Part shown: positions 1 through 64,000 of the stretch, in pieces
How positions within the stretch are numbered: position 1 is the first letter of the stretch
Layout: every line of letters begins with the position of its first letter
IMG/VR virus record: IMGVR_UViG_3300046047_000262
Direction: 5' to 3' (one strand)
DNA length: 64,000 nt
Origin: a virus
Notes under the pieces: model-generated
The model's input: only the letters and a program-made list of their open reading frames with translations
Database searches by the model: none
What the model was told of the DNA's origin: nothing
Made by a program: the position numbers and the translations under genes

Positions 1-798
1 GAATGGGAGTTCCTTCGCGAAGTTTGTCCAGGATCGGTTGGACGGGTATGCGCTTTTATAGATATCGGTTTCCGCAGCCGAATCATTGAATTGGTATACG
101 AATCCTGGGTTAGTATCGCCTTTACCATTGTTCTTGCGTTGTGAAGGCAGCTTGTATACGAGACTGGGGTTGATTCGGAGGAAGTCAACGATACGATGCC
201 GCCATTTCATCTCCTCTTCGTCAATACGATTAGGATGCCCCCAATTATCGAGTAGACCATTTGCCCATGATTCGAATGGTGGTTCCCATGGAAGGAACTT
301 CAATCGGTTGGCTACTGGTGGTGACAGTTCGTAACCATCAGCGGCGGTCTCCACAGGGTTCATAGCACCGATGATAATGGTTTCAGGTGGCATCTTCATA
401 CCATTAGGGAACTCATGCTCGTTAAGCATCTGCAACATGGATGCCTGGACTGCAGGATTGGAATTCGAGAACTCATCCAGAAACAGGATGATCTTCTTGT
501 ACTTCATGATCTCGAATTGCCATGATTGTACGGCGTATTCAGTGACGGATATGGATTCACCATTGGTTAACGGTTTGTCAACCAGTCTGGGGAACCCAGT
601 GATATCAGTCGGTTCTTTCTGACTACCGATAATGGTGATAATCTTGTAACCTTCGAAGAGCTTCAGATCAAGTAACGAATTCACCAGTGCCGATTTTCCA
701 AGACCAGGGTTACCTACTATCATCTGACTCAAGCCTGCTTTCACACCGGCTATGATGGAGTATAAGGTCTCCGTAGTATAAGCATCTTTTATCGCCAT
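1..798 (-). CDS. MoxR-like AAA+ ATPase (partial, 3' end beyond window start)
   Basis: Manually translated (absent from ORF track): MAIKDAYTT...GNPGLGKS (Walker A), IILFLDEFS (Walker B), IIGAMNP, PVANRL, YPSNRSW; GGAGG RBS upstream. Confidence 0.8.
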   Translation of the reverse strand, partial: MAIKDAYTTETLYSIIAGVKAGLSQMIVGNPGLGKSALVNSLLDLKLFEGYKIITIIGSQKEPTDITGFPRLVDKPLTNGESISVTEYAVQSWQFEIMKYKKIILFLDEFSNSNPAVQASMLQMLNEHEFPNGMKMPPETIIIGAMNPVETAADGYELSPPVANRLKFLPWEPPFESWANGLLDNWGHPNRIDEEEMKWRHRIVDFLRINPSLVYKLPSQRKNNGKGDTNPGFVYQFNDSAAETDIYKSAYPSNRSWTNFAKELPF

Positions 799-864
799 AA
801 GTCCATTACCTCCATAACACGTAATATCAATTATCAGCACGTTTCATGTCATTTACCATGGACT

Positions 865-950
865 ACCCATAATCGCTGTTTTTTACATCGTACGTAATCG
901 ACTATATACAGAATGGTACTGAAAACATGCGTTCTGTACATAGTCGATTA
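865..950. repeat. 86-bp dispersed intergenic repeat, copy 1 (contains 19-18-19 inverted repeat at 895-950)
   Basis: Aligns with 32379-32464; arms taatcgactatatacagaa / ttctgtacatagtcgatta. Confidence 0.8.
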
Positions 951-954
951 TCAG

Positions 955-1932
955 TTACAATTTATTGATCTTATCCACGAGCTTTTTACTGATGAACAAC
1001 GCCGAACCGTACAAGAGGATAACAATGATGAAAACAACCCATGACAGGAAGCTATGGAACCAGAATTGACGAGCTATAGGTTGAGAGAAGTATGTGTACA
1101 GGAACAATAACGGAAGGAATATAGTGGCTACCCATATCGTTGGCATCAGCGAAGCAACAGCCTGATCCCTCTTACGTCGTACCCTCTGCCTGTTCGCCAC
1201 GATCTCCTGTATGATCTTGATCTGATCAGATAGTTTAGAACTACCAGTATCAACGGCGATGATGACACAGATCATCAGGAACCTCAGTTCCTCGGCGGAG
1301 AATGAATTGTAATTGGAAAGAAGAACCTGTTTCGTGGATCCACCTGCATTCAACTGATTCTCAATATCGATGAACTCATTATGTAATTCAGGTGGAGTGG
1401 TCGAAATGGCCTCCAACAGAATAGTACGGTAATTAGCTGATGTCTGCAAGGATGCAAGCATTGATGACAAGAATGCGGGAATCTCATCAGAAAGCTTCTC
1501 AGTGCGTTTGTTAGCCTTGAAATCAAGAACCAACGCTAACAATGCTAACAAACCAATACTAACAATCGCCGCACCGATGATCTGGAATTTGAAGATGAAG
1601 GAGAACAGTACGAATACCACTGCGGTACTTATCAACGCCACCTTACCAGCATTATCACGTCTGACAGCAAGGATGTTCACACCTGAATCCACCAACCTCT
1701 TACCCCAGAACTCATTCCAACGCTGTGCTATCGTTACCTTCGTTGATTCCTCTACAGTGAAATCCGAAGTGAATTGGAGTTTCAGCTGCTTATCGAGAGC
1801 TATACGTGTGGAATACTGATCCCAGTAACGTTTGGCTAACACGCCGATAAGGAATACAATAGCGATAATCGATAACGGTACTGCTATCGTGAATAGCAGT
1901 AACGAATTATTCTGGAACAAGGTCTGTAACAT
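955..1932 (-). CDS. tadB: TadB-like type II secretion system F family pilus assembly protein
   Basis: N-terminal and C-terminal TM pairs; EIPAFLSSMLASLQT/LNAGGS pattern; directly downstream of tadA. Confidence 0.75.
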   Translation of the reverse strand: MLQTLFQNNSLLLFTIAVPLSIIAIVFLIGVLAKRYWDQYSTRIALDKQLKLQFTSDFTVEESTKVTIAQRWNEFWGKRLVDSGVNILAVRRDNAGKVALISTAVVFVLFSFIFKFQIIGAAIVSIGLLALLALVLDFKANKRTEKLSDEIPAFLSSMLASLQTSANYRTILLEAISTTPPELHNEFIDIENQLNAGGSTKQVLLSNYNSFSAEELRFLMICVIIAVDTGSSKLSDQIKIIQEIVANRQRVRRKRDQAVASLMPTIWVATIFLPLLFLYTYFSQPIARQFWFHSFLSWVVFIIVILLYGSALFISKKLVDKINKL

Positions 1933-1940
1933 GTAACATT

Positions 1941-1947
1941 AATATCA
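1941..1947 (-). promoter_or_regulatory. Class B motif TGATATT before tadB
   Basis: Exactly 8 nt before ATG at 1932, no Shine-Dalgarno. Confidence 0.55.
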
Positions 1948-1956
1948 TTGTTCTGG

Positions 1957-3474
1957 TTAATGTACGATCTTAGTGGATTTTCCTTCGAAGCCCTCTAATT
2001 GGACACATTGATCCCAAGTGTAATCAGGAATGAAATCCAATCGTTTGGTTCGTTGGAGCAATGGGCTAGGTTCGTTTACCTTGACCCAATCACCGAACGC
2101 ACGACCATTCTCATCCTTACGAAGTTGATACTCCCATAACGTCCGTACGGGTACGGTCATCTCGCCATCAACATTAGCTGGACGACTCCCCACTTCCGCG
2201 ATCTCCACGACACGACGAGTACCATCGGCCATCTTCTCCATGTGAACGATGATATCGAAAGCCGAAGCGATCATGCCCAACGTGTCCTTGCCTTGTATCA
2301 TCCCTGAAGTGGAGATAAGGTTAGTCAACCTGACAATGGTATCCTCGGGATTATTGGCATGAACGGTCGAGAACACCTGTGCTCCAGTGTTAGCAGAATC
2401 AACCAGATCGTATGCCGTTTTATCACGGGTCTCACCAATGACCACAATGCCAGGATTCATACGCAGGGACGCCCTGACGTGATCATGCATGGTGAACGCC
2501 CCAGTACCGTCAGAATTACCTTTCCTGGATTCTGTTCCAGGCACTTTGAACGGCTTATTAGGATTAAGCTCAAGTTCCAGCACGTCCTCTATGGTCCAGA
2601 TACGCTTGTCATTCGGGAATAACCCTGATATGGCATCAAGGAATGTGGTCTTACCCGAACCCGTGGAACCAATACATAACATGCTCATACCGGATTTGAT
2701 CCACTTGGCGATATCCATAAGAATCTGCTGATTGCAAGTACCATTATCAACCATATCGCTGATCGTCCAGTATTGTTGTGGATGTCTACGAATGTCTACA
2801 ATCGGACCACCAGGGGCAACATCAGTGGTCAATGCGGCCACACGGGAATAATCCTGTAGACGAGCATCCAAGTAAGGGTTGTTCGTATTGAATGACAGAT
2901 CCTTCCTATTAGCCTGTTGGAGGATCTTGTCAACAAGCATGTTCACATGTTCAGGATTGGCGAACCTCGCTGATGGCACTCGCGTCAATTGTCCACGAAG
3001 CGTTATGTTAACATTATCAGGACCATCGACATACACCTCTTCAACACGGGGATCAGACCATATGGGATCGATGATTCCCAGTCCCAGTATTTCGAATGTC
3101 ACCATCTGACTGATCGTGGAAGCACTGTCCTGATAGGAAACACCCTCTTGGTTCAGATACGTACTTACCAATGATTGTACCGCTGATAACGCCTTAAGAT
3201 AGATGTCATCATTATGATCAGCTCTACGAGCCTGAGCGAACATCTCCGATGAGTTATGGTTCTTAGCCTGCTTATACACCCATTCCACACAGGCAAGCAC
3301 CGTATCCCAATGCTTATAGAAGTAATCATCAGGAAGCTTCAACATGTAATCAAGCGTGATACTATCATTAGAGCCCGCTGAATCGGACTGCTTGGCGATC
3401 TCATTCTCCTCATCAGCATCAGCAAACATGCTGTAGTAATCATTATTGATATCGTTATTACTGTTTACTAACAT
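1957..3474 (-). CDS. tadA: TadA/CpaF pilus assembly ATPase
   Basis: GSTGSGKTT Walker A, TIEDVLEL Asp box, ASLRMNP..VVIGETRD, STVHAN His box. Confidence 0.93.
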   Translation of the reverse strand: MLVNSNNDINNDYYSMFADADEENEIAKQSDSAGSNDSITLDYMLKLPDDYFYKHWDTVLACVEWVYKQAKNHNSSEMFAQARRADHNDDIYLKALSAVQSLVSTYLNQEGVSYQDSASTISQMVTFEILGLGIIDPIWSDPRVEEVYVDGPDNVNITLRGQLTRVPSARFANPEHVNMLVDKILQQANRKDLSFNTNNPYLDARLQDYSRVAALTTDVAPGGPIVDIRRHPQQYWTISDMVDNGTCNQQILMDIAKWIKSGMSMLCIGSTGSGKTTFLDAISGLFPNDKRIWTIEDVLELELNPNKPFKVPGTESRKGNSDGTGAFTMHDHVRASLRMNPGIVVIGETRDKTAYDLVDSANTGAQVFSTVHANNPEDTIVRLTNLISTSGMIQGKDTLGMIASAFDIIVHMEKMADGTRRVVEIAEVGSRPANVDGEMTVPVRTLWEYQLRKDENGRAFGDWVKVNEPSPLLQRTKRLDFIPDYTWDQCVQLEGFEGKSTKIVH

Positions 3475-4401: not shown

Positions 4402-5655
4402 TCATTTCTTCTCATCGAGAACCTTATCCTGACCAAGACCTATAAACCGCTTCGTCTCATCCTCGACCCGGTTCTTGATGTTATCATGCAAGGACTTGTA
4501 TACATCAGCCTCCTCCAACCAGTTCGCGTACTGTTCGGTCAGGGAAACACCTTGCTGCAGGTGACCGATGACTTCCTTCTGGTCACTGTCAATATCACTG
4601 GACTTAGGCATCGGCATACGCCATATCAATGCGTGACTCGCATTCGAGCTTATGGCACCATTATCCAACGCACGTTTCTTTTCTGATGATATGTTCAGTA
4701 TCTTCTGTCTGAGAATCGGAGCATTAGCAGGAGTAATACCATCATGTTGCGTTGATCTCAGATTATCAATGATCAGATCCGTGATATCCGATGCGGTCAG
4801 ATCCTTAGCATCAATGATAGGGAAATCGATCTGTGGTCGTTGTGGTAGTTGTTTGAAGACAGGTGTCATCGTGCCATCAGGTTGTACCGTCCATTTCGTC
4901 CAACCCCTATGCAACGGCGTATCCGCATCAGAGAACCCTCGACGTATCAATGAACCGTTATAGTATGTCTTCAAACCCGCCGTGTCAGTGGTGCCATCCT
5001 TGGAACCTACGAAACCACGTTCATGGATATGCCCGAGCAGCCTGTATGACCAATTGGGATTACCAATGATATCATCAGGAATGATGACTTCACGCGGTGA
5101 CTGCTCAGTATGCAGACGCATCTTCGTCAACGGATCAATCATAGCACCATGAGTCGTGAATATGTTGACCATACCATCAACAGGTCGTACCTTATCCCAA
5201 GTACTGGCCTGTTCCTTGTAAAGGTGATGCGATACCATATGCAACATGATATTAGGGGCGATGGTATGCGATGCGTATGATTCCCAATGAGAATAGATAC
5301 CACGCTCGGGATCATTCAGTAAAGCCGTAGCCGCCAATTCCGATTTCACATCCGATACATCATGGTTACCAGTCAGGATATAAGTCTTCAACCCAGCGTC
5401 AGCGAAACGACGTATCTCGGTCTGTGCGAACATGATCGCCCTGTTGGATGGATCGGAAAAATGGAAGACATCACCGGCAATCAGCACGGCATCAACCTCA
5501 TGATCCTTGATGATATCCGTAACCATAGCATGGAAGGCAGAATACCCATCAGCCTCACGCCAATTGATATTCTGCCTTGTCGTTTTGTCCCCCTCATGGT
5601 AACCGAGATGAAGATCCGATAAATGAGCGAGAACGAAATTGTTATGCATATCCAT
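4402..5655 (-). CDS. sbcD: SbcD/Mre11-family metallophosphoesterase nuclease
   Basis: HLSDLHLG, AGDVFH, GNHD, GHIH, YNGS motifs. Confidence 0.88.
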   Translation of the reverse strand: MDMHNNFVLAHLSDLHLGYHEGDKTTRQNINWREADGYSAFHAMVTDIIKDHEVDAVLIAGDVFHFSDPSNRAIMFAQTEIRRFADAGLKTYILTGNHDVSDVKSELAATALLNDPERGIYSHWESYASHTIAPNIMLHMVSHHLYKEQASTWDKVRPVDGMVNIFTTHGAMIDPLTKMRLHTEQSPREVIIPDDIIGNPNWSYRLLGHIHERGFVGSKDGTTDTAGLKTYYNGSLIRRGFSDADTPLHRGWTKWTVQPDGTMTPVFKQLPQRPQIDFPIIDAKDLTASDITDLIIDNLRSTQHDGITPANAPILRQKILNISSEKKRALDNGAISSNASHALIWRMPMPKSSDIDSDQKEVIGHLQQGVSLTEQYANWLEEADVYKSLHDNIKNRVEDETKRFIGLGQDKVLDEKK

Positions 5656-5665: not shown

Positions 5666-6733
5666 TTATACCAATTTACGTAGCACTGGCCTCAATTGTA
5701 ACCATGTGGATGACAAATTGGAATCATACTCATGATCATCACGATGTGAACCATCACCGAACAACCTGCCAGACAGATCATCACCGACTGTTGAGAACGC
5801 AATATGTTCGAACGGTGAAAGATGCTCTTGTGCAAGCAGTCTCTTCCCCAGTACCGTATTGTCCCGTACCGTAGCCGTGGATCTATCCTTATATGAGATT
5901 CTAGCACACTCTGAAGCCGATGACATCAGTTGTGGCAATAATTCACCCCATGGTGTATCCAAAGCCGGTACAGCGTCAATAAACGGCATATGCAACCAAG
6001 TTTCACTAGGATGCGAATCTTCGAGAACAGCCTTCACCAGTACCGCTAATGCATGAATCTCAGGCATGGCCGCATCATCAATACGAAGATGTAGGAAGTT
6101 CGACCAGTACGTTGATGATATCAAAGCCTCATGCCACATCCATGGTTCCAACAGCCTGTTGGCATTCTGCTTATGAATGGATAACGCACCCTGCTCGGGT
6201 TCGTCGGCATTGTACACATGCTCATTATAGTAATCAACCCAATGTTCCCAGTCATCAGCAACAGCATCAACGGGGAGAAGATCGCCAAGCATAAGCCGCA
6301 GAGTCGATAGCACCGCCTCATCCCTAGTATGAAGATAGGTCGCGGTAGCCTTATCAGATGTCTCCTGTGATGCGTACTTACCGCCCATACCCTTCTGGTT
6401 CACTGTCCACAATGGTATGTATGGCTCCTCCATGATCCCGCGGATAGTGGTCTTGAAACTCCTGGCCCTTGATGACGCCGAGTTCCTACTGAATACCCTA
6501 TGCGTATTCACTTCGGGAAGTATCACCCTAGGGAATCTGCAGATCAATGTGGACATGCGGTCAGGTGATAGACTGTCAACAATGTCACCACCCTCCGGAA
6601 CGCTATCGCATACCATGATCACCTTGTAACCCTCTAATACTGGATCCGTGAACACTGCTTCCAATCGTGGTGATGACGACCACGGGAACATGACCTTACG
6701 GGTTACCACCGAGTTAAAATCTGGTTGAGTCAA
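5666..6733 (-). CDS. thyX: FAD-dependent thymidylate synthase-like protein (phage/plasmid-type ThyX)
   Basis: EVNTHRVFSRNSASSRA, ECARISY, HLSPFEH motifs; TTG start. Confidence 0.75.
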   Translation of the reverse strand: MTQPDFNSVVTRKVMFPWSSSPRLEAVFTDPVLEGYKVIMVCDSVPEGGDIVDSLSPDRMSTLICRFPRVILPEVNTHRVFSRNSASSRARSFKTTIRGIMEEPYIPLWTVNQKGMGGKYASQETSDKATATYLHTRDEAVLSTLRLMLGDLLPVDAVADDWEHWVDYYNEHVYNADEPEQGALSIHKQNANRLLEPWMWHEALISSTYWSNFLHLRIDDAAMPEIHALAVLVKAVLEDSHPSETWLHMPFIDAVPALDTPWGELLPQLMSSASECARISYKDRSTATVRDNTVLGKRLLAQEHLSPFEHIAFSTVGDDLSGRLFGDGSHRDDHEYDSNLSSTWLQLRPVLRKLV

Positions 6734-6739: not shown

Positions 6740-7621
6740 TCATCCTTCCTTCTTGTTGAATACATTGTTATCTGGTACATATAATGTCATATCCAGTCCG
6801 TACGTACTGGAATAGGGAATACCGTCATCGGTGGAATCCATACCATTGCGATCTATCTTCAATGGACTTCCCGCTCGACCGAATACATCACCATAAGTCA
6901 TAAAATACGTTTTACGCTTGGGTCTTACTAAAGATCCTAGTAGGATACCCGAATCGAAGACATCCAAGGATCTCTCCGTTACACCAGGATCTGTTTTCAT
7001 CTCACCCCACACATCAACCCATGCTGATGGGCAATACCCCTTCTTAGTGAGCTTACCCTCCATCATGAGTACTGATTCCGAATCAGGTGTAGTATGAAGA
7101 TCCCCGCCAAGAACGAACAATGCTGAACGATATGCAGGGTTCTTACGTTTCTTCATGTAAGCATCCTTGTCCACAATGGACGCGATGAACGTACGATGGG
7201 ACTCGAAGAAAGGTCCTGATATGCTATCCAGATTGTAAAAACATATGGGATATCCATGATAATTGATAGTATCAACAAGACAATCGGGTGCTAACTGTAC
7301 ATGTTGTATATCATCACCACCAATCAATGGTATGGCATTCGAGTCGATGAGTTTCAAGTATGGTGCGAAAACCGTTGCGTTACGATAACCGAGCTTTGAC
7401 AATGAATTCGATATGTGAACATTCCCATAATCCTGAAGCATCTTGATCACTGAAGGGTACTTATCAAGACATCCCCTGACCATAAGAACATCAGGTTGTT
7501 TGGATAATACGTCCTGAACATATGATTGAGTACGTTCAGGATATGATGGCAAATGCGGTGACAATCCTATTGTTGATACCAGGAGCTGCTCATTGTTCGA
7601 TATGTCATCAGTGGTACTCAT
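6740..7621 (-). CDS. Divergent endonuclease/exonuclease/phosphatase (EEP)-fold protein
   Basis: DVLMVRG, VLGGDLHTTPDS, WVDVW, RSLDVF resemble EEP motifs; terminal SDH absent. Confidence 0.45.
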   Translation of the reverse strand: MSTTDDISNNEQLLVSTIGLSPHLPSYPERTQSYVQDVLSKQPDVLMVRGCLDKYPSVIKMLQDYGNVHISNSLSKLGYRNATVFAPYLKLIDSNAIPLIGGDDIQHVQLAPDCLVDTINYHGYPICFYNLDSISGPFFESHRTFIASIVDKDAYMKKRKNPAYRSALFVLGGDLHTTPDSESVLMMEGKLTKKGYCPSAWVDVWGEMKTDPGVTERSLDVFDSGILLGSLVRPKRKTYFMTYGDVFGRAGSPLKIDRNGMDSTDDGIPYSSTYGLDMTLYVPDNNVFNKKEG

Positions 7622-8307
7622 TATCGTCGACCTTTCAATGAGACGAAGGTGGCGTTCTCGGCTATACCCTGGATATGCTTATAGAAGTTACGATCACCGG
7701 GAGTATTAGGTTTCGTGGTCATACACAACACGAATCCTATATTCGTATTCCGAGCTTTATCCTCAATAATCGGCCACACTTTGTCAGCATCCTTTTCATG
7801 CCGGCCAACATTGTCAATACCGATGACCTTGACCTTAGGTCCGAATAATGAACGCATGGTACTACGTTTCTCTACAAAATCAGTAAGATTACTGAAAAGT
7901 TCGGCTTCCGATATGATCTTCACCTGGCTATCAGGTTCGTCAATGATGTATGCTCCTATCAGATTAGTGATATACGCATACATTGCCCACGTCTTACCCT
8001 TCGTATTGTCTGCTGACCTGATGATCAGAGATTGTGGTATCCCTGATGCTTTGCTTTCCTTAACTGCTTCGGTAATATTGTCAGCGGATTCAGGATCAAA
8101 CCCTCGGATAGCTTTAATCGAGGCGTTCTTGTAGACTTTAGGGCACCATTGTTTCCATTTGACCAAGGCTTTCATACGATTCTTGGTTTCAATACCATTG
8201 AGGATCGCAAGCCCCTGTTCCCTCTGCTCGTTCTGGAACTTCTCATAACTGTCAAGATCATTCTTGGACGTCTTGAATATATTCTCCCCATCATAACTGA
8301 GACTCAT
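7621..8307 (-). CDS. DnaC/IstB-like ATPase (putative helicase loader)
   Basis: Degenerate Walker A DNTKGKT, IGIDNVG Walker B, CMTT; two genes downstream of dnaB. Confidence 0.6.
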   Translation of the reverse strand: MSLSYDGENIFKTSKNDLDSYEKFQNEQREQGLAILNGIETKNRMKALVKWKQWCPKVYKNASIKAIRGFDPESADNITEAVKESKASGIPQSLIIRSADNTKGKTWAMYAYITNLIGAYIIDEPDSQVKIISEAELFSNLTDFVEKRSTMRSLFGPKVKVIGIDNVGRHEKDADKVWPIIEDKARNTNIGFVLCMTTKPNTPGDRNFYKHIQGIAENATFVSLKGRR

Positions 8308-8721: not shown

Positions 8722-10245
8722 TTACGCACCGAAACTATCAAAGTCATCATACCCGCCAATCTCGCTTGATTCGGATTCATCGTTAATCCATTCATCAATC
8801 TTATCAGGATCATCGGACACGTAATCACCGTTATCACTTGTGCTCTGGTCATCAGTGTTACCATCATCATCAAAAGCGGTACCATCATCATCCATTTCAA
8901 GGAACTGACCATATGACAACATGGTATGGCACTTGAACTTGATTCCGCACCTGTTACCTCGGTTCTTACCTATGATGAACAAGGTAGGTTCCTTACCATC
9001 GTCTGATTTGATATTACGATGAATCAGAATGATGACATTCGAATTCTGAGCGATGGCTCCGGATTCACGAATATCATTAATGGTAGGTGTGGGATCCTCA
9101 TCATCCTTCTTTTCCCTGTTCAACTGGACCAGATCAATGATCGGAACCTTTAACTGACCCGCCAGCAATTTCAAGGCTCGTGAGATTTCCGCCACCTGAC
9201 GTTCCCTGTTATCGTTCTTACGAGTCGGGTCAGGCGTAATCAACTGCAGATAATCCACAATGATGAGATCAAGACCATCATCCGACATCATTTTCTTCAT
9301 CGCCGCGGCTTTAATATGATTCACATCCATATTAGAAGTAGTATCTATGGAAATCTTCAATTTCTTGAAATGCTCACGTGCTTGTTTTACCTTTTCCACA
9401 TCAGCATCATTCAACGCCCCCTTAGTCAATGGAGCCAGTTTGACATGAGCAGTCATAGCCATGATCCTGTTCATGATCTCCTGAGCGGCCATCTCCAATG
9501 AGAAGAACATGATTGATCGTCCAGCATTAGCAGCCGCCACAAGAAAGTTGGTAGCAGTGAACGATTTACCAGTACCTGTACGACCGCCTAATGTGATTAG
9601 GCTACCTGGTTGCCAACCGCCAACATACTTATCCAGCGTTTTGAATCCAGTGGGGACACCATTGGTAGCAGCCAGTGGGTTACCACCACTATCCCTATAT
9701 CGTTTTACTCCTTCTTCCACTGATTCTGCGTACTCATCAAAGTAATCGGCGATATCAACGATCTCATTGCTATCAGTCATTCCCAACGCTACTTCATCCA
9801 GCGAAGTCTGGGCGGATGAGATGATATCCTTAGCCATTACGCCTGGAGTATGCAATGCCTCATTCGCTTCAACAAGTACTGGGGCGATCTTGTTCTTAGT
9901 GGATTCTTCCTTGATGATCTTAGCCCAATGACTCACTGATTGCATGGTTCCATTGATGGCACCATCGTTGAATAGACGGCGTACCTCGTCCAGACCACCG
10001 GCACGTTGTAGATCACCATGAGTAACCAGATATGAGACTACGGATGCAAAATCAACGGATGAACTACTCTCATCAATCTTAGTGATCGCATTGTATATCA
10101 CTGATAGGTTGGTATTAGTGAAGTCATCCTTGTTAATGACGCCAATGGCCTCCCTGATCTGATCAGGGAGATACAACAGGGTGGATACCAACCCTTCCTC
10201 AGCCAGTTTAGTTATCTCTTTAGTCGTAGTATCATTAAGTGCCAT
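8722..10245 (-). CDS. dnaB: Replicative DNA helicase DnaB
   Basis: GGRTGTGKS, FSLEM, IIVDYLQL, QLNRE, IRESGAI, KNRG motifs plus N-terminal DnaB domain. Confidence 0.95.
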   Translation of the reverse strand: MALNDTTTKEITKLAEEGLVSTLLYLPDQIREAIGVINKDDFTNTNLSVIYNAITKIDESSSSVDFASVVSYLVTHGDLQRAGGLDEVRRLFNDGAINGTMQSVSHWAKIIKEESTKNKIAPVLVEANEALHTPGVMAKDIISSAQTSLDEVALGMTDSNEIVDIADYFDEYAESVEEGVKRYRDSGGNPLAATNGVPTGFKTLDKYVGGWQPGSLITLGGRTGTGKSFTATNFLVAAANAGRSIMFFSLEMAAQEIMNRIMAMTAHVKLAPLTKGALNDADVEKVKQAREHFKKLKISIDTTSNMDVNHIKAAAMKKMMSDDGLDLIIVDYLQLITPDPTRKNDNRERQVAEISRALKLLAGQLKVPIIDLVQLNREKKDDEDPTPTINDIRESGAIAQNSNVIILIHRNIKSDDGKEPTLFIIGKNRGNRCGIKFKCHTMLSYGQFLEMDDDGTAFDDDGNTDDQSTSDNGDYVSDDPDKIDEWINDESESSEIGGYDDFDSFGA

Positions 10246-12131: not shown

Positions 12132-12137
12132 ATATAC

Positions 12138-12146
12138 ATGATACCA
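12138..12146 (-). promoter_or_regulatory. Class A extended -10 (TGGTATCAT), leaderless
   Basis: Exactly 6 nt before ATG at 12131. Confidence 0.7.
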
Positions 12147-12180
12147 AGTATCATGCTGTCGAACAAGAAAGCGTCAATAA

Positions 12181-12215
12181 ATAATGGGAACGGATAGTAA
12201 ATCCGTTCCCATTAT
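12181..12215 (-). terminator. Intrinsic terminator after ssb
   Basis: Perfect 15-bp inverted repeat ataatgggaacggat/atccgttcccattat, 5-nt loop, T-rich tail on minus strand. Confidence 0.75.
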
Positions 12216-12235
12216 CATCTTAACGATTTGAACAA

Positions 12236-12763: not shown

Positions 12764-12862
12764 GTTGTACATCCTTTCATTACTTATGTTATTTTCTTAT
12801 TACCCCGAAGGGTATTATCATTATACCCAGTTATACGGCTTTTCCTGTTTTTTATATATTTT

Positions 12863-47806: not shown

Positions 47807-47870
47807 CTTTGTATCGTTGACATTCGCTTACCCTACTATCTAATATCACGATGAGAGTCGTATCATATAG

Positions 47871-47911
47871 ATAACGGGTGGAAACCACAAAATAGTAGTT
47901 CCACCCGTTAT
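47871..47911 (-). terminator. Terminator hairpin after phoH
   Basis: 13-bp inverted repeat ataacgggtggaa/ttccacccgttat. Confidence 0.7.
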
Positions 47912-47929
47912 ATCTATCCCGAAACTGTT

Positions 47930-50004: not shown

Positions 50005-50084
50005 ACTATTCATGCTTTGAATCTATCACTGGGTAAAATATAAACTATCGCTATATGATAGGCTTTATGAGCGTAGCATATATG

Positions 50085-50124
50085 AGTGGGGCGAACGTAT
50101 TTTTACGTATACGTTCGCCCCACT
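50085..50124 (-). terminator. Terminator hairpin after tadG-like gene
   Basis: 16-bp inverted repeat agtggggcgaacgtat/atacgttcgccccact. Confidence 0.75.
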
Positions 50125-50138
50125 ATATATGACCGTGG

Positions 50139-55780: not shown

Positions 55781-56998
55781 TCAGATGTCCTTCGCATAGA
55801 AATCCGACGTGTAATGATGAGCAGGAGCATTGGAGAATGATGCTCTTTTCGCAAAACCTATGGCATCAAGAAGATGTGCATGAAGACTTGATGATGATAC
55901 CATCGCACCCATGGTATTGAATCTTCGCTTGTTCTCTCGCATCCCCAATACTGAGAACAGCATCTTGTACATATTCAAAGCCTGCTGGAACCCATTCTTA
56001 GTCCATACGCCCCTAGACTTGGCCTCACATACCAGTGTTGGCACAAAGATAGTCCGTTCTGGAGATGAGTAATCATTAGTACCAGTGAACAAGGCAGGCA
56101 CACTATACCCGACTACGAACGCCATGAATGAGCGGATATGACCTGAATCATCTACCGATACGACAAAATGGGCATCCTCTATCAACGAATCAACGTATTT
56201 GACCACATCACCTTGTTCACCTGTGAACAATGACTGCATGTATGTAAGACGCTCAGTGATTGGCGGTTCCAACCAATTCGAATACTTACGGCAGAATGCA
56301 ATCAGTGCAAGATACTGTTTGGAGCCATGTTCTATCCTACCAATGAACCTGACGGTACCGCCTGTTTTGATTGGTATGGGCTGGATGGTACTCTGTACTA
56401 ACGGACGCATACCCTTGACATTTGCTTTGCCGACATTGGGTAAAGGCATCGCTATTGAATCCTTACCAGTGTTCTCGTCAACTGATTTAATGCGTTTGAT
56501 CAAAGCTTTACCCGATGAGTTACGACGTAACCCCTCGTTGATCAGAGCGTTCTCAATATGCTTCGCGATGATAGGATTCAACTGTGAATCCATTGATATC
56601 ATGAGATCAATGGTCTTGGTTTTGTTCTTGCGGCGTTTATCCATGGCGGCGTTCTTTTTCAAGACGTATTGTGACATCAACCGTATACAAGTGGATAACC
56701 TCGAAAAGGTTATCCTTGATGATGGATCAATAAGAACATAATCAATGGATACGACCGTATGTGACGGATTCTTCTTTTCCTTACCAATACGAAAAAGAAA
56801 CGCTATTGACCAGAACTCGTTCTGACCGTCGATGTTCTTACATACCAAAGCCTTATAACCATCGGATGCGATACCATATGGCGTCGGATAATTCACTGCT
56901 TCAAGATGGTATCTCGCGAAGGAACGTGAAAGATCCCTGAGTAGTCTCAGGTATACGACCTTAGACAAATCAGAGATAAGTTCATACCGAATTTTCAT
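55781..56998 (-). CDS. Putative tandem GNAT-fold protein
   Basis: VSIDYVLID in N-half; FVPTLVC..SRG, LDAIGF in C-half; AAGGAG RBS. Confidence 0.45.
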   Translation of the reverse strand: MKIRYELISDLSKVVYLRLLRDLSRSFARYHLEAVNYPTPYGIASDGYKALVCKNIDGQNEFWSIAFLFRIGKEKKNPSHTVVSIDYVLIDPSSRITFSRLSTCIRLMSQYVLKKNAAMDKRRKNKTKTIDLMISMDSQLNPIIAKHIENALINEGLRRNSSGKALIKRIKSVDENTGKDSIAMPLPNVGKANVKGMRPLVQSTIQPIPIKTGGTVRFIGRIEHGSKQYLALIAFCRKYSNWLEPPITERLTYMQSLFTGEQGDVVKYVDSLIEDAHFVVSVDDSGHIRSFMAFVVGYSVPALFTGTNDYSSPERTIFVPTLVCEAKSRGVWTKNGFQQALNMYKMLFSVLGMRENKRRFNTMGAMVSSSSLHAHLLDAIGFAKRASFSNAPAHHYTSDFYAKDI

Positions 56999-57034: not shown

Positions 57035-58480
57035 TCATCCTGAATATGAAGTCACTGTCATAGCAGCGGCCAATGATTCCTTAAACCCATCGGATATACA
57101 GGATGAAAGATCCGACATCAGAGCGTTAGCCAATGTTCGATGACCTGAAAGTAATCTCAGAATGATCAAAGCACTAGTATAATCACCAGTATCATTGGCG
57201 GCTATGATCACAGCGTTCTGTACACGATTACTACGTTCGGCATCATCAATAGTGGAATCGTTCTCCATGATGTACTCAACTGAAGGCTCTGAGTTACCAG
57301 TCTGCTTCTCCTCGTTTGTCCCGTCCCACTGTAAGGTAGTGGTCTTGCGTGTGGATTGCCATACTCGTAATTGCGAATTCATGTCCACGTACTGTGCGAA
57401 GGATATATCATAATCATTGTCCTCAGCAGACATCTCAGCCCATACCTGATTGTCATCATAGTATTCAATGGATTCATTGCCATCAGTGTTCTTACGTAGC
57501 CTTTTGATGGCCTTGTTCTTCTCAAGCTGGAACTTGTTGATGGTCTTGCCGATCTCATTGTTAGCATAATTGTATGATTGACGCGGCAGGACTCTCATCA
57601 AGTACACACTGAATGGGCGGCAGATCGATTCATCGAAACGTTGGACCAGATTCAGTATCCAAGCGGTAAGCAATGCCTCACCATCATCATCGGTACGCTG
57701 CTTATCGTTCTCATTGCCTTGAGCAGAACTCTCCAAGTACGTGTTGATGGTCTTCTTGATCGCGGGGACAAGCACCACGCTGAACTTTACATAGAATCTT
57801 ACCAGCTCGGCAATGGCCTCATCATTCAGTTGGTTGATCTCACGTCTATTGGACATGTTAAAGGAACTGATCTTAGCGAACATCGTACCCTGTCCACCAT
57901 GAGATTCCTCGAATGTCTTCAGTTTCTCACGGACACAATCTGATGACAAGCAATATATTCTATACGTATCACCATGGTATTCACCACCGATCTCCTCATG
58001 CTTGGTATCCTGTTTCCTGAATCGTCCTATATATCCCATCTCATGCTTGATCTCATTGATATCAGCTCCGATGGCAAGTTGGAAGGTACATATGCCGATC
58101 TTACGTAACGGTGCTGATAGGAACAGTTCCGTTTCGGTCATACGATGGGTGCCGCGACCGAAAATCCTCGGGTATAGGATCTTGTCTATAAGCTGGGCTT
58201 CAATGGGTATCCCATTACTTTTACGCCATGTTTCCAATTGTTTAAGAGACATACGATACGATATGCCGCCATTATCAGTGGTGATGGCATCCTTATCCAT
58301 CAGATCGCTGATGATGGATGCCATAGTGTCATCATCCTTGATCTTCACTAAGGTCTTGATCTTATCGGGATTATACCATTGGCCATCACTGAGAACAGCA
58401 GCGACCCTGAACTCAGGTTCAAAAGTCATGAATTGTTCACGAGACCATAGTGGTGTCGTCTTCTTGAAATACCCATTCAT
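57035..58480 (-). CDS. Divergent sigma-70-like factor with N-terminal winged-HTH-like extension
   Basis: AWILNLVQRFDESICRPFSVYL..LPRQSYNY resembles region 2; NKAIKRLRKN..YYDDNQVWAEM region 3-like; alternative start at 58537. Confidence 0.55.
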   Translation of the reverse strand: MNGYFKKTTPLWSREQFMTFEPEFRVAAVLSDGQWYNPDKIKTLVKIKDDDTMASIISDLMDKDAITTDNGGISYRMSLKQLETWRKSNGIPIEAQLIDKILYPRIFGRGTHRMTETELFLSAPLRKIGICTFQLAIGADINEIKHEMGYIGRFRKQDTKHEEIGGEYHGDTYRIYCLSSDCVREKLKTFEESHGGQGTMFAKISSFNMSNRREINQLNDEAIAELVRFYVKFSVVLVPAIKKTINTYLESSAQGNENDKQRTDDDGEALLTAWILNLVQRFDESICRPFSVYLMRVLPRQSYNYANNEIGKTINKFQLEKNKAIKRLRKNTDGNESIEYYDDNQVWAEMSAEDNDYDISFAQYVDMNSQLRVWQSTRKTTTLQWDGTNEEKQTGNSEPSVEYIMENDSTIDDAERSNRVQNAVIIAANDTGDYTSALIILRLLSGHRTLANALMSDLSSCISDGFKESLAAAMTVTSYSG

Positions 58481-58496
58481 ATGGATGGTGTTCCTC

Positions 58497-58814
58497 TCAC
58501 AATATTTCGATATGCGGTAACAGTGATGCTTTATCATGGAATAATTGCTTCATACCATCGAAAAGCCTACTATTCTCGAATACATCGTCGTCAACAGGAC
58601 TGATTACATAGGTTCGTTCCACCATACGTTCAACATCAATATGGCTTTTGCCCTCATATGATGCGGTACCGCCGAACACAGTAAGAATGGAATCGGGAAT
58701 ATCATCATCAGCGATGTCAGTATCCGATTGATACGTGAATACCCTGAGCTTACGAACGGGCTCAACATGTGGCTTGTCCGAAGTGTCATCAATTGTGGAC
58801 ATTAGATCGATCAT
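58497..58814 (-). CDS. Hypothetical protein
   Basis: 105 aa, coupled between DUF3566 and the sigma-like gene. Confidence 0.6.
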   Translation of the reverse strand: MIDLMSTIDDTSDKPHVEPVRKLRVFTYQSDTDIADDDIPDSILTVFGGTASYEGKSHIDVERMVERTYVISPVDDDVFENSRLFDGMKQLFHDKASLLPHIEIL

Positions 58815-59290
58815 TTATCACTCCCTTTGTTATTATTATCAACTGTAACCTTCAGCCCACCAACGAATGCCGAAGCCGCATTGTACAGTATTACCGTGAG
58901 CACACCGAAAACAGTGAGAACAATGATCAGGAAAACTGAGAATCCCGCTGACAAGCCGATCAGACCATTCTTGGATAACTCCAGAACACCACCAAGCAAA
59001 GCATTCAGCTTTGATAGGAACCCTAATGAGTCCAATGCGGTAATACCAAGGAACAACACCAGGAACGTCGCCAGACCCCATCCTATAGACATGATGAATG
59101 AGACCAACGCCGCCCTGCCGACACCTATGCTCGATGCTAACACCTGATGCGAACGCGTAATCGGCGTATCAACGATTACGTCTACGTCACTATCACTTGT
59201 AGTATCAGCGTCAGGAATCACAGTATCCATGATCTTACTATTACTTGATGCGGTTACCCTAGGTTTTCTTTGACCATTGTTATTGCCCAT
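58811..59290 (-). CDS. DUF3566-family membrane protein
   Basis: ALVSFIMSIG..LDSLGFLS..ILYNAASAFVGGLKVTV; start moved to MGNNN. Confidence 0.75.
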   Translation of the reverse strand: MGNNNGQRKPRVTASSNSKIMDTVIPDADTTSDSDVDVIVDTPITRSHQVLASSIGVGRAALVSFIMSIGWGLATFLVLFLGITALDSLGFLSKLNALLGGVLELSKNGLIGLSAGFSVFLIIVLTVFGVLTVILYNAASAFVGGLKVTVDNNNKGSDK

Positions 59291-59296
59291 ATCATC

Positions 59297-59305
59297 ATGA
59301 TACCA
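59297..59305 (-). promoter_or_regulatory. Class A extended -10 (TGGTATCAT), leaderless DUF3566-sigma operon
   Basis: Exactly 6 nt before ATG at 59290. Confidence 0.7.
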
Positions 59306-59366
59306 ATTTTTTACATGATAATACGTTCTGATGCCAATTAGCACAAAAGAGCTGAATGTATGATTA

Positions 59367-60182
59367 TCAGTATACTCGTGCTATCGTGTACGCACCTGGG
59401 AATCCTGATAATGGGGAAATAATCGTACCCTTCCTAGGACTCGCGGCATTCATCACCATACCATTACCTATGTAAATGGCGGCATGCTGACTGTTAGCGA
59501 TGATGTCACCAGGCATCATCTGCCCTTGCGGTATAGTTACACCAACGTTTGCCTGAGCACCAGATACCCTTGGTAACGTGATACCGAAATGAGCGAACAC
59601 ATACTGTACGAACGCCGAGCAATCCCAACCATCGGTAGGGGATGTGCCACCATACACATAAGGTCTACCGACGAACTGTACCGACCACATGGCGATCTGC
59701 TGACCACGGGTCTGCTGATCCGTTGACAAGGTGGGAACAGCTGTCACAGTTGGTGAAGACCCTGCGGATGATGCTGATGTCGTACCATCCGATGCGGGAT
59801 CTGATCGTGTATAGTTCCTACTGACAGTATTGTTCGAAGCTGCGACGGCAGCACTTTGAGCTTGCTCGCGGGCTTGCTGATCGGCAGCATCCTGAGCGGC
59901 TTTCGCCTGAGCATCGGCAGCAGCCTGTTTCTCAGCAGTGGATTGAGTCTTCGGGACGCTCATGGTCTCACTGACCCATTCACCATCGCCTACAGTGGAA
60001 ACGGATATGGATTCAGATAACAGATCCTTATGTGGTTTATCACGCACGGGAAACGATGCCATAGCGGTCACGGTCTTACCATGAGTGGATGCCAATGCGG
60101 TGGTTGATGACAATCCCATGGTTACGAATGAACCTATGATGACAGGGATGCTAATAAGAGTTCCATATAATTTATGCTTCAT
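59367..60182 (-). CDS. Secreted NlpC/P60 (C40) peptidoglycan endopeptidase
   Basis: GRPYVYGG, WDCSAFVQYV, HAAIYIG; signal peptide, Ala/Gln coiled-coil linker. Confidence 0.92.
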   Translation of the reverse strand: MKHKLYGTLISIPVIIGSFVTMGLSSTTALASTHGKTVTAMASFPVRDKPHKDLLSESISVSTVGDGEWVSETMSVPKTQSTAEKQAAADAQAKAAQDAADQQAREQAQSAAVAASNNTVSRNYTRSDPASDGTTSASSAGSSPTVTAVPTLSTDQQTRGQQIAMWSVQFVGRPYVYGGTSPTDGWDCSAFVQYVFAHFGITLPRVSGAQANVGVTIPQGQMMPGDIIANSQHAAIYIGNGMVMNAASPRKGTIISPLSGFPGAYTIARVY

Positions 60183-60297: not shown

Positions 60298-62955
60298 TCA
60301 TGACAATATCGGCTCATCAGTACCGAAATACCGCATAGCATCCTTGATTGATGATGCCCTCTGACTGGATGAAAGAATACTATCAGCATCCTCCCTGGCA
60401 ATACCGATCCACTTAGCATGAAGCATGAGATCAGCGAACCTGAGATCAGTGGTACCAGATTGCTGGGTACCGAACAACGAACCCGTTCCCCTAGTCTTCA
60501 TATCCTCCTTCGACAGTTTCCAACCATCAAGAGTATCAACTAATGATTGTAACCTTCTCTGGGCATTAACATTGAACGGCATGGCCACAAGATAGCATCG
60601 TGATGGCAACGAACCCCTACCGATTCGACCACGAATCTGATGAAGAGAAGCCAAACCGAACCTGTTCGCATCCAATACGATCATCCTAGTGGCCTTATCA
60701 CAGGACACACCTACCTCCACTACCGATGATGCTACCAGCACGTTAACGGTACCGTTCTTGAAATCCTCGATGACCTTATCCTGCTCGACCTTCTTCTGTG
60801 AACCGTATACCACACCGACATTGACATCAGGCATCAACTCCTGCATACGTTTATAGGTCTTCTTCACACTGGCGGCATCGATCTTATCATTATCCGATAC
60901 CATAGGAGCAACGATGAACGTTCCATGACCAAGAGACGATTCCCTACGGATATCAGACCACAGCTCACAATCAGCATCATCGAGAACAGTTTGACCCTTC
61001 TGCTTCAACCATGTAGTCACAATAGGTTGGCGACCTGCAGGTAATTCATCCAAAGCGATGTATGATATGTCACCATAGTATACTTGGGCCATACTTCTGG
61101 GAATAGGTGTAGCAGTCTGCATCAACATATCAGGAACCCTACCATCATCACGTATCTCAAGTAGCCTGTTACGCTGTGAAGCACCGAACTTATGCTGCTC
61201 ATCCACACCGACGAATGTAAGATCATGGTACTGCAAGTTCAATACCGCATGTGTACCGAAGATCACGTTGGCATCACCGTTCTCAATGTTACCAATGTTC
61301 TCCCTTCTCTTAGCAGCCGAACCCTTGCCCTTATACGTAGCATGGAACACAGGATGTATTCTCGATGACGCCGCGGCGGGCATTCTTTCAAGGATACTCA
61401 TGAACGTATCATATAACTGACGGGCAAGAATCTCCGTAGGAGCACAGATGACTGCCTGATGACCTGCATTCACCGCCGCTAACGCCGCCATATGCATCAC
61501 CGTGGTCTTACCTGAACCGACATCGCCGACAAGCAGAGCATGCATCCTGGAATCAGCGGACATTCCCGAGCACAAGAGTTCCACAGCATGATGCTGGGCA
61601 TGCGTCAACGCATAAGGCAACACGTTCTCATAATCCTTCACCAAGGACAGATCGGATGGCTGGGAAATACCTTTAATGACACCTTCGCCATGCCGTTCGT
61701 TCTCAATGAGAATCATTAATTGCACCAGTTCGCAGAACGCAAGAACCTCTGTTGCCTGGCTAATCGACGCATTGTTATCAGGGAAATGCATGCTTTTCAA
61801 CGCGGAACCATAACTCATGGAACCAATGCTATGCTTATGTAAGAGTTCTTCCGACCATGATGGTCCGACGAATCCGTCACCAAGCCGACTGACGAGTTCC
61901 TGTGTACAATACATGATGATATTCGGTGACAACCCGAATCTTGGCGGTGAATTGTATACAGGGATGACACCCATGACACCATCCACATCCACGAAATCAA
62001 AGTCGGGTTGTGCTAACTGTGCGTACTGATGCCCATGGAAATCCTTGATCTGATATGAACCTGTGGCAATGACCTCATCATCGACCTTGAACTTCTTCTG
62101 CATCCATAAAGCATTGAAGAACGTACAATCAATGGATTCCCCATGACTATCCGTCAATGAGATGATCAGGAGCTTGGAAAAGGTCTTGAACCCTTGGATA
62201 CGACCAATCACCGTAGCCGACTCACCAGGAATCAGATCCTGTATGTACTGCGGTTCGGTCTTATTGATGTACTTCCTTGGCGAGTAGAAGATAAGATCAT
62301 ACAGATCGTTCACCCCGATCATATGGAATTTATCCTCAATCGATGATCTATTCGTTTTCAAAGCACTGAACGATTGTATGTTACCCTGTACGACATGAAG
62401 CAAGGATAATGGCATACCCCTAAGCGAATCAGCGGTACCATCATAAGGTGGTGGAAGCAATTCGTTAGCATTGGTCAACACGATGTCATCAATGATCATC
62501 CTAGCGGGCTTCGGTAATGACGCTTCCAGAATAATGAAATCCCGCACCCTGTTGACAGGTATCGACCATGAACCATCGGAACGACTGGAAGCCCATAACC
62601 TACGCATCATATCCTGATACAAGGGTATCCTAGGTGCCTGAACGATCACACGCTGCGACTGCTCATCCAATGACGCGTGCGGTCGTGGCAATGAACCAGC
62701 AAGTTCAGCCAGTCTCGACTTGATGCCTTCATCCGCGAAAGTAAGCATCATGCCATCATGGGTCATCGATGCGAGCACGTATCGTAAAGCCAACGCGGGC
62801 ACAGGAGCCTCAACGAACTTATACTGCCAACGACCACCGAACGGCATGGACGAAGTAAACGTCGGTATGCCCCTGAACGACGCATCGGCATCGAAATCAG
62901 TGGTAACCAGTATGTGTTCACTAGCTATTCCAACGAATATTCTACCTTGGGTCAT
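60298..62955 (-). CDS. recG: ATP-dependent DNA helicase RecG with N-terminal extension
   Basis: GDVGSGKT, APTEILARQ, DEQHKFG, ATPIPRS, FGLASLHQIRGRIGRG, RGTGSLFGTQQSG. Confidence 0.93.
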   Translation of the reverse strand: MTQGRIFVGIASEHILVTTDFDADASFRGIPTFTSSMPFGGRWQYKFVEAPVPALALRYVLASMTHDGMMLTFADEGIKSRLAELAGSLPRPHASLDEQSQRVIVQAPRIPLYQDMMRRLWASSRSDGSWSIPVNRVRDFIILEASLPKPARMIIDDIVLTNANELLPPPYDGTADSLRGMPLSLLHVVQGNIQSFSALKTNRSSIEDKFHMIGVNDLYDLIFYSPRKYINKTEPQYIQDLIPGESATVIGRIQGFKTFSKLLIISLTDSHGESIDCTFFNALWMQKKFKVDDEVIATGSYQIKDFHGHQYAQLAQPDFDFVDVDGVMGVIPVYNSPPRFGLSPNIIMYCTQELVSRLGDGFVGPSWSEELLHKHSIGSMSYGSALKSMHFPDNNASISQATEVLAFCELVQLMILIENERHGEGVIKGISQPSDLSLVKDYENVLPYALTHAQHHAVELLCSGMSADSRMHALLVGDVGSGKTTVMHMAALAAVNAGHQAVICAPTEILARQLYDTFMSILERMPAAASSRIHPVFHATYKGKGSAAKRRENIGNIENGDANVIFGTHAVLNLQYHDLTFVGVDEQHKFGASQRNRLLEIRDDGRVPDMLMQTATPIPRSMAQVYYGDISYIALDELPAGRQPIVTTWLKQKGQTVLDDADCELWSDIRRESSLGHGTFIVAPMVSDNDKIDAASVKKTYKRMQELMPDVNVGVVYGSQKKVEQDKVIEDFKNGTVNVLVASSVVEVGVSCDKATRMIVLDANRFGLASLHQIRGRIGRGSLPSRCYLVAMPFNVNAQRRLQSLVDTLDGWKLSKEDMKTRGTGSLFGTQQSGTTDLRFADLMLHAKWIGIAREDADSILSSSQRASSIKDAMRYFGTDEPILS

Positions 62956-62961
62956 GGTATC

Positions 62962-62970
62962 ATTGTACCA
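62962..62970 (-). promoter_or_regulatory. Class A extended -10 (TGGTACAAT), leaderless recG
   Basis: Exactly 6 nt before ATG at 62955. Confidence 0.7.
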
Positions 62971-62987
62971 AAAAAGTCAAAAGGTAC

Positions 62988-63899
62988 TCAGACCGTAACC
63001 ATAACCGCGACGATCATCGCTATCGTATTGTACGTAACATGACCGATGATCGTAGGATACAGGCTGGAATACTTCCTACATGCCAACCATGTGAACACCG
63101 AACCGATGAGAGCAGGTGCGAGAATGGACATGGTATCCGTAAGAGTATCACCAGTGAACTGTGCATGGGCTATACCGAAGATGAAACCTGAGACGATGAC
63201 ACTGATAGCGGTACGAATCTTGGAAGGCTTACCATTCGGACCCTGACCAAAACTCGACTGAATAAGTGAACGACCGATCAGCCCACGGAACAGGCACTCC
63301 TCTAGGAACGGTCCGATCAGAACTGTGATCAACACGATGCCTACAGCAAGAACAGGATACTTACTCGTACCATTGAACAGGTCAACACCAGCGGATGATA
63401 ACATCTTCGTCGTCTCGTTCATGACATCATTGTCACCTGATGGTGAATGATGCGGTATCAACGCGATAACATTGGCTACAACCTGTGCGACCACGAATAA
63501 CAACGCGCCCGATCCAAGACCCAATCCTATTGACTTGAACCACGCACCCTTATTCGTCCTGGTATGCATACGCTTACTGATATCATGGACACCAAGACCC
63601 ACCCCGCCGTTCAACGTGGATACGTTCCTCACGAACGGAAGAGCGAACAGAGCGAACGCAGAGAGTTCAGATACGATCACCAGAACGAACATACCAGCTT
63701 GGAGATCAAGTTGATGTCCTGATAAACCCCACCATGACAGGTATCCGATGATACCAATAAACGATCCCGCCAAGGATACCAGAATAAATAAGGGAAGACC
63801 GCCTATGAATGCCAGAATCCTCGATCTATCCTGTTTATCAGCCCACCGAGACTTCATATCGATCCACCATGACATCAATCGTATCATGACCACATTCAT
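62988..63899 (-). CDS. CPBP (CAAX/Abi) intramembrane metalloprotease
   Basis: GPFLEECLFRG, FGIAH, HVTYN; GGGAGG RBS. Confidence 0.88.
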   Translation of the reverse strand: MNVVMIRLMSWWIDMKSRWADKQDRSRILAFIGGLPLFILVSLAGSFIGIIGYLSWWGLSGHQLDLQAGMFVLVIVSELSAFALFALPFVRNVSTLNGGVGLGVHDISKRMHTRTNKGAWFKSIGLGLGSGALLFVVAQVVANVIALIPHHSPSGDNDVMNETTKMLSSAGVDLFNGTSKYPVLAVGIVLITVLIGPFLEECLFRGLIGRSLIQSSFGQGPNGKPSKIRTAISVIVSGFIFGIAHAQFTGDTLTDTMSILAPALIGSVFTWLACRKYSSLYPTIIGHVTYNTIAMIVAVMVTV

Positions 63900-63927
63900 A
63901 AGCGATCCTCCCTTAATTGGATTCCCA

Positions 63928-63999
63928 TCACAGGAATCCTACATCATCATCAACATCAGGGCCGTCACGAGACGCTGAAACGACACCTACAGTACGTAC
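63928..63999 (-). CDS. C-terminal fragment of an upstream gene (partial)
   Basis: Open frame VRTVGVVSASRDGPDVDDDVGFL* entering from the window edge. Confidence 0.35.
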   Translation of the reverse strand, partial: VRTVGVVSASRDGPDVDDDVGFL

Positions 64000-64000
64000 T

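Follow-up and report, generated by a model that had tools for sequence, protein, structure and literature searches.

A 64-kb sequence filed as viral is probably the conserved core of a giant conjugative-plasmid-like element

Giant extrachromosomal elements (ECEs) that carry their own replisome, RNAs supporting translation, and cell-wall enzymes have been recognised only lately, examples being the Inocles and the Borgs. The Inocles are giant plasmid-like ECEs of oral Streptococcus with a GC content of 24-32% (Kiguchi et al. 2025, PMC12340149). The pMP7017-type plasmids are 190-kb conjugative megaplasmids of Bifidobacterium (PMC10832533, PMC8313286). In this study, I analysed a 64,000-nucleotide stretch of DNA from the IMG/VR virus record IMGVR_UViG_3300046047_000262; the whole stretch is called the window below. 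A first-pass annotation, made from the sequence alone, had read it as a piece of an actinobacterial megaplasmid or giant ECE that is coded on a single strand. The analysis led to a similar view: the window is probably the conserved core of a giant, conjugative-plasmid-like ECE with an Inocle-like build, whose host probably belongs to the Actinomycetota. Literature searches found no description of the family to which the window belongs, and the Inocles and pMP7017 were the sole analogues.

A complete relative of the window was found in IMG/VR (G001; 419,707 bp, 49.5% GC). Its two ends share an overlap of 89 bp with a unique CRISPR spacer in it, so G001 is circular; in IMG/VR it is flagged with terminal repeats. 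It was found that 49 window proteins are collinear with the 124-202 kb region of this circle, at 25-62% amino-acid identity. Thus, the window represents the conserved core of the family. One window protein has an identical copy on a 170,763-bp contig, so the window's own element must be at least that large. Besides a plasmid-type replicase, G001 encodes a VirD4-like coupling protein (TraG-D_C/TrwB_AAD_bind/T4SS-DNA_transf matches), a VirB4-like ATPase (AAA_10, 163 bits), a zeta toxin, and a ParA-like ATPase (AAA_31). No rRNA gene was found in the whole 419,707 bp or in the window, and a scan of 69 G001 proteins, among them almost every one of at least 400 amino acids (aa) outside the core, matched no RNA polymerase family. 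Thus, G001, without rRNA and without a detectable RNA polymerase, is not a cell. A collinear circle with a replicase and type IV secretion system (T4SS) ATPases and with no rRNA supports the megaplasmid or giant-ECE reading of the first-pass annotation.

The family is far from named sequences. A megablast search of PLSDB with 20 kb of the window gave no match, a family-specific protein of 405 aa had no match in PLSDB or INPHARED, and two family-specific probes found no relative among 50,697 phage records. The DnaB of the window is about 30% identical to the best sequence of the plasmid and phage collections, and its identity to named proteins does not exceed about 37%. In contrast, a collection of 5.8 billion proteins contains unnamed DnaB relatives that are 44-57% identical and come from contigs as long as 489 kb. 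The core-like genes had been predicted to be divergent, and this holds for DnaB. The contigs of these relatives share the gene order RadA, SSB, PD-(D/E)XK nuclease, DnaB, ThyX-like protein, SbcD, T2SSE, and T2SSF with the window, and the window gene order is also kept in L003, L007, L022, and L065-L067. The contigs of relatives range from 150 to 630 kb, with 49.5-60% GC in close relatives and 44-60% GC in the family. L065-L067 are ENA scaffolds of 545,287, 628,915, and 163,348 bp and form a high-GC branch (59.9% GC) with the order PBP, DnaN, Clp, ..., hallmark protein, TcpC, ..., RadA (PBP, penicillin-binding protein; the hallmark protein is described below). This branch is common, as its protein appears in 85 blocks of the collection. 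Low-GC contigs from JGI and ENA (L023-L027; 31-36% GC) share only DnaB (36-43% identity), RecG, and the hallmark protein (291 aa, 46-53% identity) with the window, and their gene order differs. They may link the window's family to giant elements of low-GC hosts. A single sequencing run, SRR16378897, holds two distinct family members, L007 and L008/L009, whose DnaB proteins are 45% identical.

The layout of the window is uniform. The minus strand carries all 55 complete open reading frames (ORFs) as well as the partial one at 1-840, so that every window gene discussed below is a minus-strand gene. The intergenic gaps have a median of 20.5 bp and never exceed 184 bp. Overlaps occur in 14 gene pairs, and coding sequence makes up 97% of the window. 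The GC content is 44.5%, and the GC skew of the plus strand is negative throughout. The sole long plus-strand ORF (24363-25052) was rejected as an antisense shadow, because the two minus-strand ORFs beneath it have syntenic homologues in G001 and the plus-strand ORF has none. No tRNA gene was found and no Rfam family was matched in the window. No Pfam virion, integrase, or ribosomal family was matched among the window proteins, and PHROG families matched 0 of the 32 unannotated ones. The one-strand coding, the very short gaps, and the lack of virion, integrase, and ribosomal genes had all been noted before, and each was borne out.

How might such an element replicate? Immediately upstream of the last gene of the window, its own element (L008) has a replicase of 599 aa belonging to PF03090, a family that includes the ColE2 and pAL5000 initiators. 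G001 carries a PF03090 replicase at the same place. In PLSDB, the replicase best matches the replication initiators encoded by plasmids of Micrococcus, Kocuria, Rothia, and Cellulosimicrobium. A PDB sequence search with it found no relative. As expected for an iteron-like putative origin, a 1-kb non-coding stretch beside the G001 replicase is packed with direct repeats. Replication would start when the replicase acts at this adjacent repeat field, as judged from the field in the relative. The element would supply most of its replisome. DnaB (8722-10245; DnaB_C, 222 bits, and the DnaB N-domain), SSB (12236-12772; Pfam SSB), and a divergent beta-clamp DnaN (28357-29514; DNA_pol3_beta_2, 30.5 bits against a cut-off of 27) are encoded in the window, and a HolA-like gene is added by its downstream flank. 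G001 has DnaE, DnaG, an NAD-dependent ligase, GyrA/GyrB, topoisomerase I, and SbcC among its DNA-handling genes, and may thus complete the set with DnaE, DnaG, ligase, gyrase, and topoisomerase I. These genes are accompanied by a recombination-repair set: a long RecG-type helicase (60298-62955; RecG_wedge, DEAD, Helicase_C, and RecG_dom3_C), which is 52% identical to the G001 copy, RadA/Sms (14914-16332; Pfam, and a full-length match to a solved RadA in PDB, E 1e-77), an SbcD/Mre11-type nuclease (4402-5655; Pfam Metallophos, and PDB phmmer matches to Mre11 at E 5e-10 and SbcD at E 1.5e-5), and a PD-(D/E)XK nuclease (10295-11329; PDDEXK_1, 72 bits).

The first-pass annotation had named most of these proteins, and its DnaB, SSB, RecG, RadA, and SbcD, together with HU (41506-41799; Pfam, E 5e-9), agree with the Pfam and PDB matches. 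Its beta-clamp and its ThyX-like protein (5666-6733; Thy1, 37.8 bits against a cut-off of 24.8) exceed the Pfam cut-offs, but both scores are weak, and PDB sequence searches with the two proteins gave no match. The gene at the DnaN position occupies the same place in relatives, with faint DnaN matches. The DnaC-like loader of the first-pass annotation was not confirmed; a Walker-A-like motif is present in the best-guess ORF (7621-8307), for which neither Pfam nor PDB gave a match.

Nearly all genes of the element point away from the replicase on one strand, and transcription would therefore run with the replication fork. Of the 376 ORFs of G001, 281 are minus-strand ORFs, and its cumulative skew drops almost monotonically. 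This strand bias, the near-monotonic skew, and the Rep family together suggest, as a working hypothesis, one unidirectional fork, which possibly covers most of the circle.

For transfer, a T4SS of the Gram-positive type can be proposed. The window encodes three VirB6-like proteins, a TcpC-like protein, and wall hydrolases, and no T4SS ATPase; the VirB4-like and VirD4-like proteins of the relative would complete the apparatus. One of the three is a TrbL/VirB6 family membrane protein of 1039 aa (44687-47806; Pfam TrbL, 33 bits; 7 transmembrane (TM) segments). The other two are giant polytopic paralogues of 825 and 1565 aa (33667-40838), which have 7-8 predicted TM segments and are 24-26% identical to the TrbL-positive copy over 450-600 aa. 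The candidate TcpC/VirB8-like component (20728-22263) has a weak Pfam TpcC match (E 0.006), while its 40%-identical orthologue in L065-L067 has a precomputed TpcC match with an E of at most 1e-5. A cell-wall hydrolase with a Phage_lysozyme2 domain (42372-43940; 74.5 bits) is proposed to play a VirB1-like role. A Tad-type pilus may assist the transfer. Its genes in the window encode a Tad/type IV pilus-type platform protein T2SSF (955-1932; Pfam), a Tad-type secretion ATPase T2SSE (1957-3474; Pfam), and a TadE-like pseudopilin (50850-51395; Pfam TadE at the cut-off, with an N-terminal TM segment), and the T2SSF-T2SSE pair (955-3474) is kept in all relatives. Tad and conjugation genes had been reported in the first-pass annotation, and both kinds are present.

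A wall and division module would remodel the host envelope, as has been proposed for the Inocles. It consists of a class A PBP with a C-terminal PASTA domain (30005-32293; Pfam Transgly, Transpeptidase, and PASTA), an NlpC/P60 hydrolase (59367-60182; Pfam), and a DUF3566 membrane protein (58811-59344; Pfam), with CrgA in a relative. In L007, the CrgA gene is located directly past the Tad genes.

G001 has 50 tRNA genes for all 20 amino acids in one 13.5-kb array (306.4-320 kb). A class A RNase P RNA (148 bits) lies inside this array (307574-307935; L046:7574-7935); an RNase P RNA seems unusual on a mobile element. A tmRNA gene is located apart from the array (267185-267540). Two ribonucleotide reductases (RNRs), a CCA-adding enzyme, an Rnl1-kinase, and a sigma-70 factor are also encoded by G001, along with type I-E Cas proteins. 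Its CRISPR array, with about 24 type I-E-like repeats, extends across the junction of the circle (1-1150 and 419309-419707; L031, L051) and is about 170 kb away from the Cas3/Cse1/Cas7 genes (~247-253 kb). The tRNA, RNase P, tmRNA, and CCA genes may support the translation of a genome unlike that of the host in composition. Such a role has been argued experimentally for pMP7017 (PMC10832533, PMC8313286). One of 23 large G001 ORFs at 257-416 kb codes for a TET-associated glycosyltransferase (TAGT, E 2e-21), a hint of DNA hypermodification.

The likeness of this family to the Inocles is one of architecture, drawn from published descriptions. Both are circles of hundreds of kilobases in which more than half of the genes are of unknown function and the ORFs are oriented by replichore. 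Both encode VirB4, VirD4, a class A PBP (bifunctional and conserved in the Inocles), DNA polymerase III alpha, gyrase, repair helicases and nucleases, sigma factors, and tRNAs, and both lack bacterial marker genes. In contrast, the Streptococcus hosts, the sortase/LPXTG genes, the many insertion sequence elements, and the GC content of 24-32% are features of the Inocles, while those of the window's family are 44-60% GC and actinobacterial affinities, a PBP that bears PASTA, Tad-type genes, DUF3566/CrgA, RNase P RNA, and tmRNA. Membership in the Inocles was rejected because the GC content of the window (44.5%) and of its close relatives (49.5-60%) is outside the Inocle range. The plasmid pMP7017 shares with G001 a tRNA array, which in pMP7017 lies beside the replicase, as well as tmRNA, type I-E CRISPR-Cas, and toxin-antitoxin genes. 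It is conjugative, has an actinobacterial host, and about half of its genes are unassigned. Its initiator RepB, however, is a RepE/pi-like iteron binder of about 300 aa, whereas the PF03090 replicases of the present family have 600-820 aa. When compared by description, pMP7017 has no reported replisome, PBP, or RecG genes (PMC10832533, PMC8313286).

Several points weigh against the window being the core of a conjugative-plasmid-like ECE. No relaxase was found in G001 with two MOB models (PF03432 and PF08751), although the VirD4-like protein, the VirB4-like protein, and DnaE, which the first-pass annotation had likewise proposed to look for beyond the window, are all there. The GC skew follows the gene strand and therefore cannot alone show the direction of replication; it was rejected as independent evidence of that direction. 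The size of the window's own element comes from a single contig, that of 170,763 bp, and the circle was seen in its relative. The affinities of RecG are mixed (Bacillota, Viruses, Actinomycetota). IMG/VR files G001 as a virus, and the Atlas labels the nearest PBP cluster and some RecG clusters as 'Viruses'. Huge phages, too, typically have large tRNA arrays, a tmRNA, and genes coded on one strand. Lastly, a divergent capsid or terminase can escape Pfam, and about 300 smaller ORFs of G001 lay outside the scan.

One rival reading takes the element for a huge (jumbo) phage or a phage-plasmid; its structural genes would then sit beyond the window or have diverged too far to be recognised. tRNA arrays and CRISPR-Cas were reportedly found in huge phages by Al-Shayeb and coworkers in 2020. 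G001 and such phages have in common their size, runs of genes on one strand, numerous tRNAs, a tmRNA, CRISPR-Cas, and genes of nucleotide metabolism. The terminal repeats of G001 in IMG/VR, the Viruses/Uroviricota labels of Atlas neighbours, and the RNR, ligase, gyrase, Rnl1-kinase, and TAGT genes, which along with CRISPR-Cas are all common in huge phages, would also fit. However, Terminase_6N, TerL_ATPase, Terminase_6C, Terminase_3, Phage_capsid, Phage_portal, and Phage_sheath_1 gave no match above the threshold over the whole 420-kb circle, while control genomes responded to the same seven Pfam models. Neither rRNA nor a capsid and terminase pair, the findings that would have pointed to a chromosome or a phage, was detected on G001. 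G001 differs from huge phages in that none of the hallmarks terminase, capsid, portal, and sheath was detected with these models and in that it has T4SS ATPases and a plasmid Rep. The three VirB6-like proteins, the TcpC-like protein, the ParA-like ATPase, and the zeta toxin also speak for a plasmid, and the failure of PHROG families and of the two probes to reveal any phage relative agrees with this. The best-conserved unknown proteins fold as a tandem GNAT and a ParB-like helix-turn-helix (HTH) protein and not as a capsid. A phage origin is therefore unlikely.

It is also improbable that the window comes from an integrated element, a chromid, or a secondary chromosome of an actinobacterium rather than from a free transmissible plasmid. 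The housekeeping-like genes (class A PBP, DnaN, DnaE, gyrase, Clp, CrgA, and RNase P RNA) would be at home there, no relaxase was found with the two models, and the relatives with 60% GC lie on scaffolds of 545-629 kb. In contrast, G001 is a closed circle of 420 kb that lacks rRNA and carries a Rep and T4SS ATPases of its own, no named cellular orthologue comes close to the core-like genes, and Pfam reveals no integrase family in the window. A chromosome segment of an ultra-reduced symbiont, similar to Saccharibacteria or the candidate phyla radiation, would suit the 44.5% GC, the strand bias, the pilus, T4SS, PBP, RecG, RadA, and DnaB genes, and the Saccharimonadota clusters among the structural neighbours of RecG, but it was rejected as highly implausible because the complete, collinear G001 has no rRNA, its large proteins include no RNA polymerase, and its tRNA genes are all confined to one array of 13.5 kb, and because a plasmid replicase adjoins the window.

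If the window is the core of a conjugative-plasmid-like ECE, its host is most likely to be found among the Actinomycetota, as far as sequence affinities indicate. The best plasmid matches of DnaB are all from actinomycetes, and those of Rep and DnaB together almost all. The nearest Atlas clusters of the PASTA-bearing PBP are one labelled 'Viruses' and then PBPs of Actinomycetota. DUF3566 in the window and CrgA in L007 hint at the same phylum, as do the class of the G001 RNase P RNA, which is A rather than B, and the type I-E CRISPR-Cas of G001.

A wider proposal can be made only tentatively, and I would not yet favour it over its negation. The family may be part of an undescribed and widespread superfamily of near-autonomous replicons of 150-630 kb and 31-60% GC, mainly actinobacterial. 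These would combine a pAL5000/ColE2-type Rep and a complete replisome with a full tRNA set, RNase P RNA, tmRNA, a CCA-adding enzyme, a wall and division module, a T4SS, and a Tad pilus. They may use a single unidirectional fork, with about 300 kb of co-oriented genes, and would stand, as a class, between megaplasmid and minimal chromosome; they may have an ancestor in common with the Inocles. The window's family would extend the giant ECEs to a second Gram-positive phylum and to other habitats; the record of one relative is titled as a fermentation metagenome. It also shows that public catalogues list such elements among the viruses, as is the case with one family member, G001. Can a primase-type Rep copy a replicon of hundreds of kilobases unidirectionally? 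The family raises this question, and its conserved unknowns, namely the ParB-like hallmark protein, the tandem-GNAT protein, and the triple VirB6 paralogues, are tractable for study.

The hallmark protein (22296-23171) is the product of the best-conserved family-specific gene. It has no Pfam match, and its 79 relative clusters are all hypothetical; the relatives (291 aa) sit on contigs of up to 628,915 bp. An AlphaFold2 (AF2) model was obtained with a predicted local distance difference test (pLDDT) score of 80, and the top 20 Foldseek matches, all weak, are nearly all ParB/Noc/SopB/VirB DNA-binding domains. Thus, the model makes the protein a candidate helical, ParB-like HTH DNA-binding protein. 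The family-specific 405-aa protein (55781-56998) has 15 relative clusters and no Pfam match. Its AF2 model (pLDDT 78) resembles GNAT and tandem-GNAT structures in Foldseek, and the idea that it could be a capsid protein was rejected because it folds as a tandem GNAT. No Pfam sigma domain was found in the protein encoded at 57035-58537, even at E 0.5, and its G001 orthologue differs from the Sigma70_r2-positive gene of G001 (283768-283962).

The remaining assigned genes of the window are as follows from its start. The 3' part of a gene for a MoxR-type AAA+ ATPase (1-840; AAA_5/bpMoxR) runs past the window start; in L009, the full-length gene encodes 405 aa and is followed by DUF2201/VWA and HolA-like genes. 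A GmrSD_C/HNH-type nuclease domain protein (18720-19796; Pfam) and a Clp/Hsp100-type AAA+ ATPase (26263-28338; AAA_2, 177 bits, and ClpB_D2-small) come next, and a GNAT acetyltransferase (40894-41469; Pfam) precedes HU. A PIN-PhoH (PhoH2-type) protein (47930-49315; PhoH and PIN_4) is present, as the first-pass annotation had stated for it and for DUF3566. The last gene encodes an Rce1-like CAAX protease (62988-63899; Pfam) and is the first gene downstream of the replicase, which itself lies outside the window.

Some of the intergenic regions have features of their own. An 86-bp element occurs in two intergenic copies (865-950 and 32379-32464), which are identical at 58 of 86 positions in an ungapped alignment and both hold a long inverted repeat. 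The gaps of more than 100 bp at 12132-12235, 47807-47929, 50014-50138, and 42246-42371 contain a GC-rich hairpin, which is followed on the transcribed strand by extended -10 motifs resembling TGGTATCAT/TGGTATAAT. The succession of hairpin and extended -10 motif suggests that these gaps may be operon boundaries.

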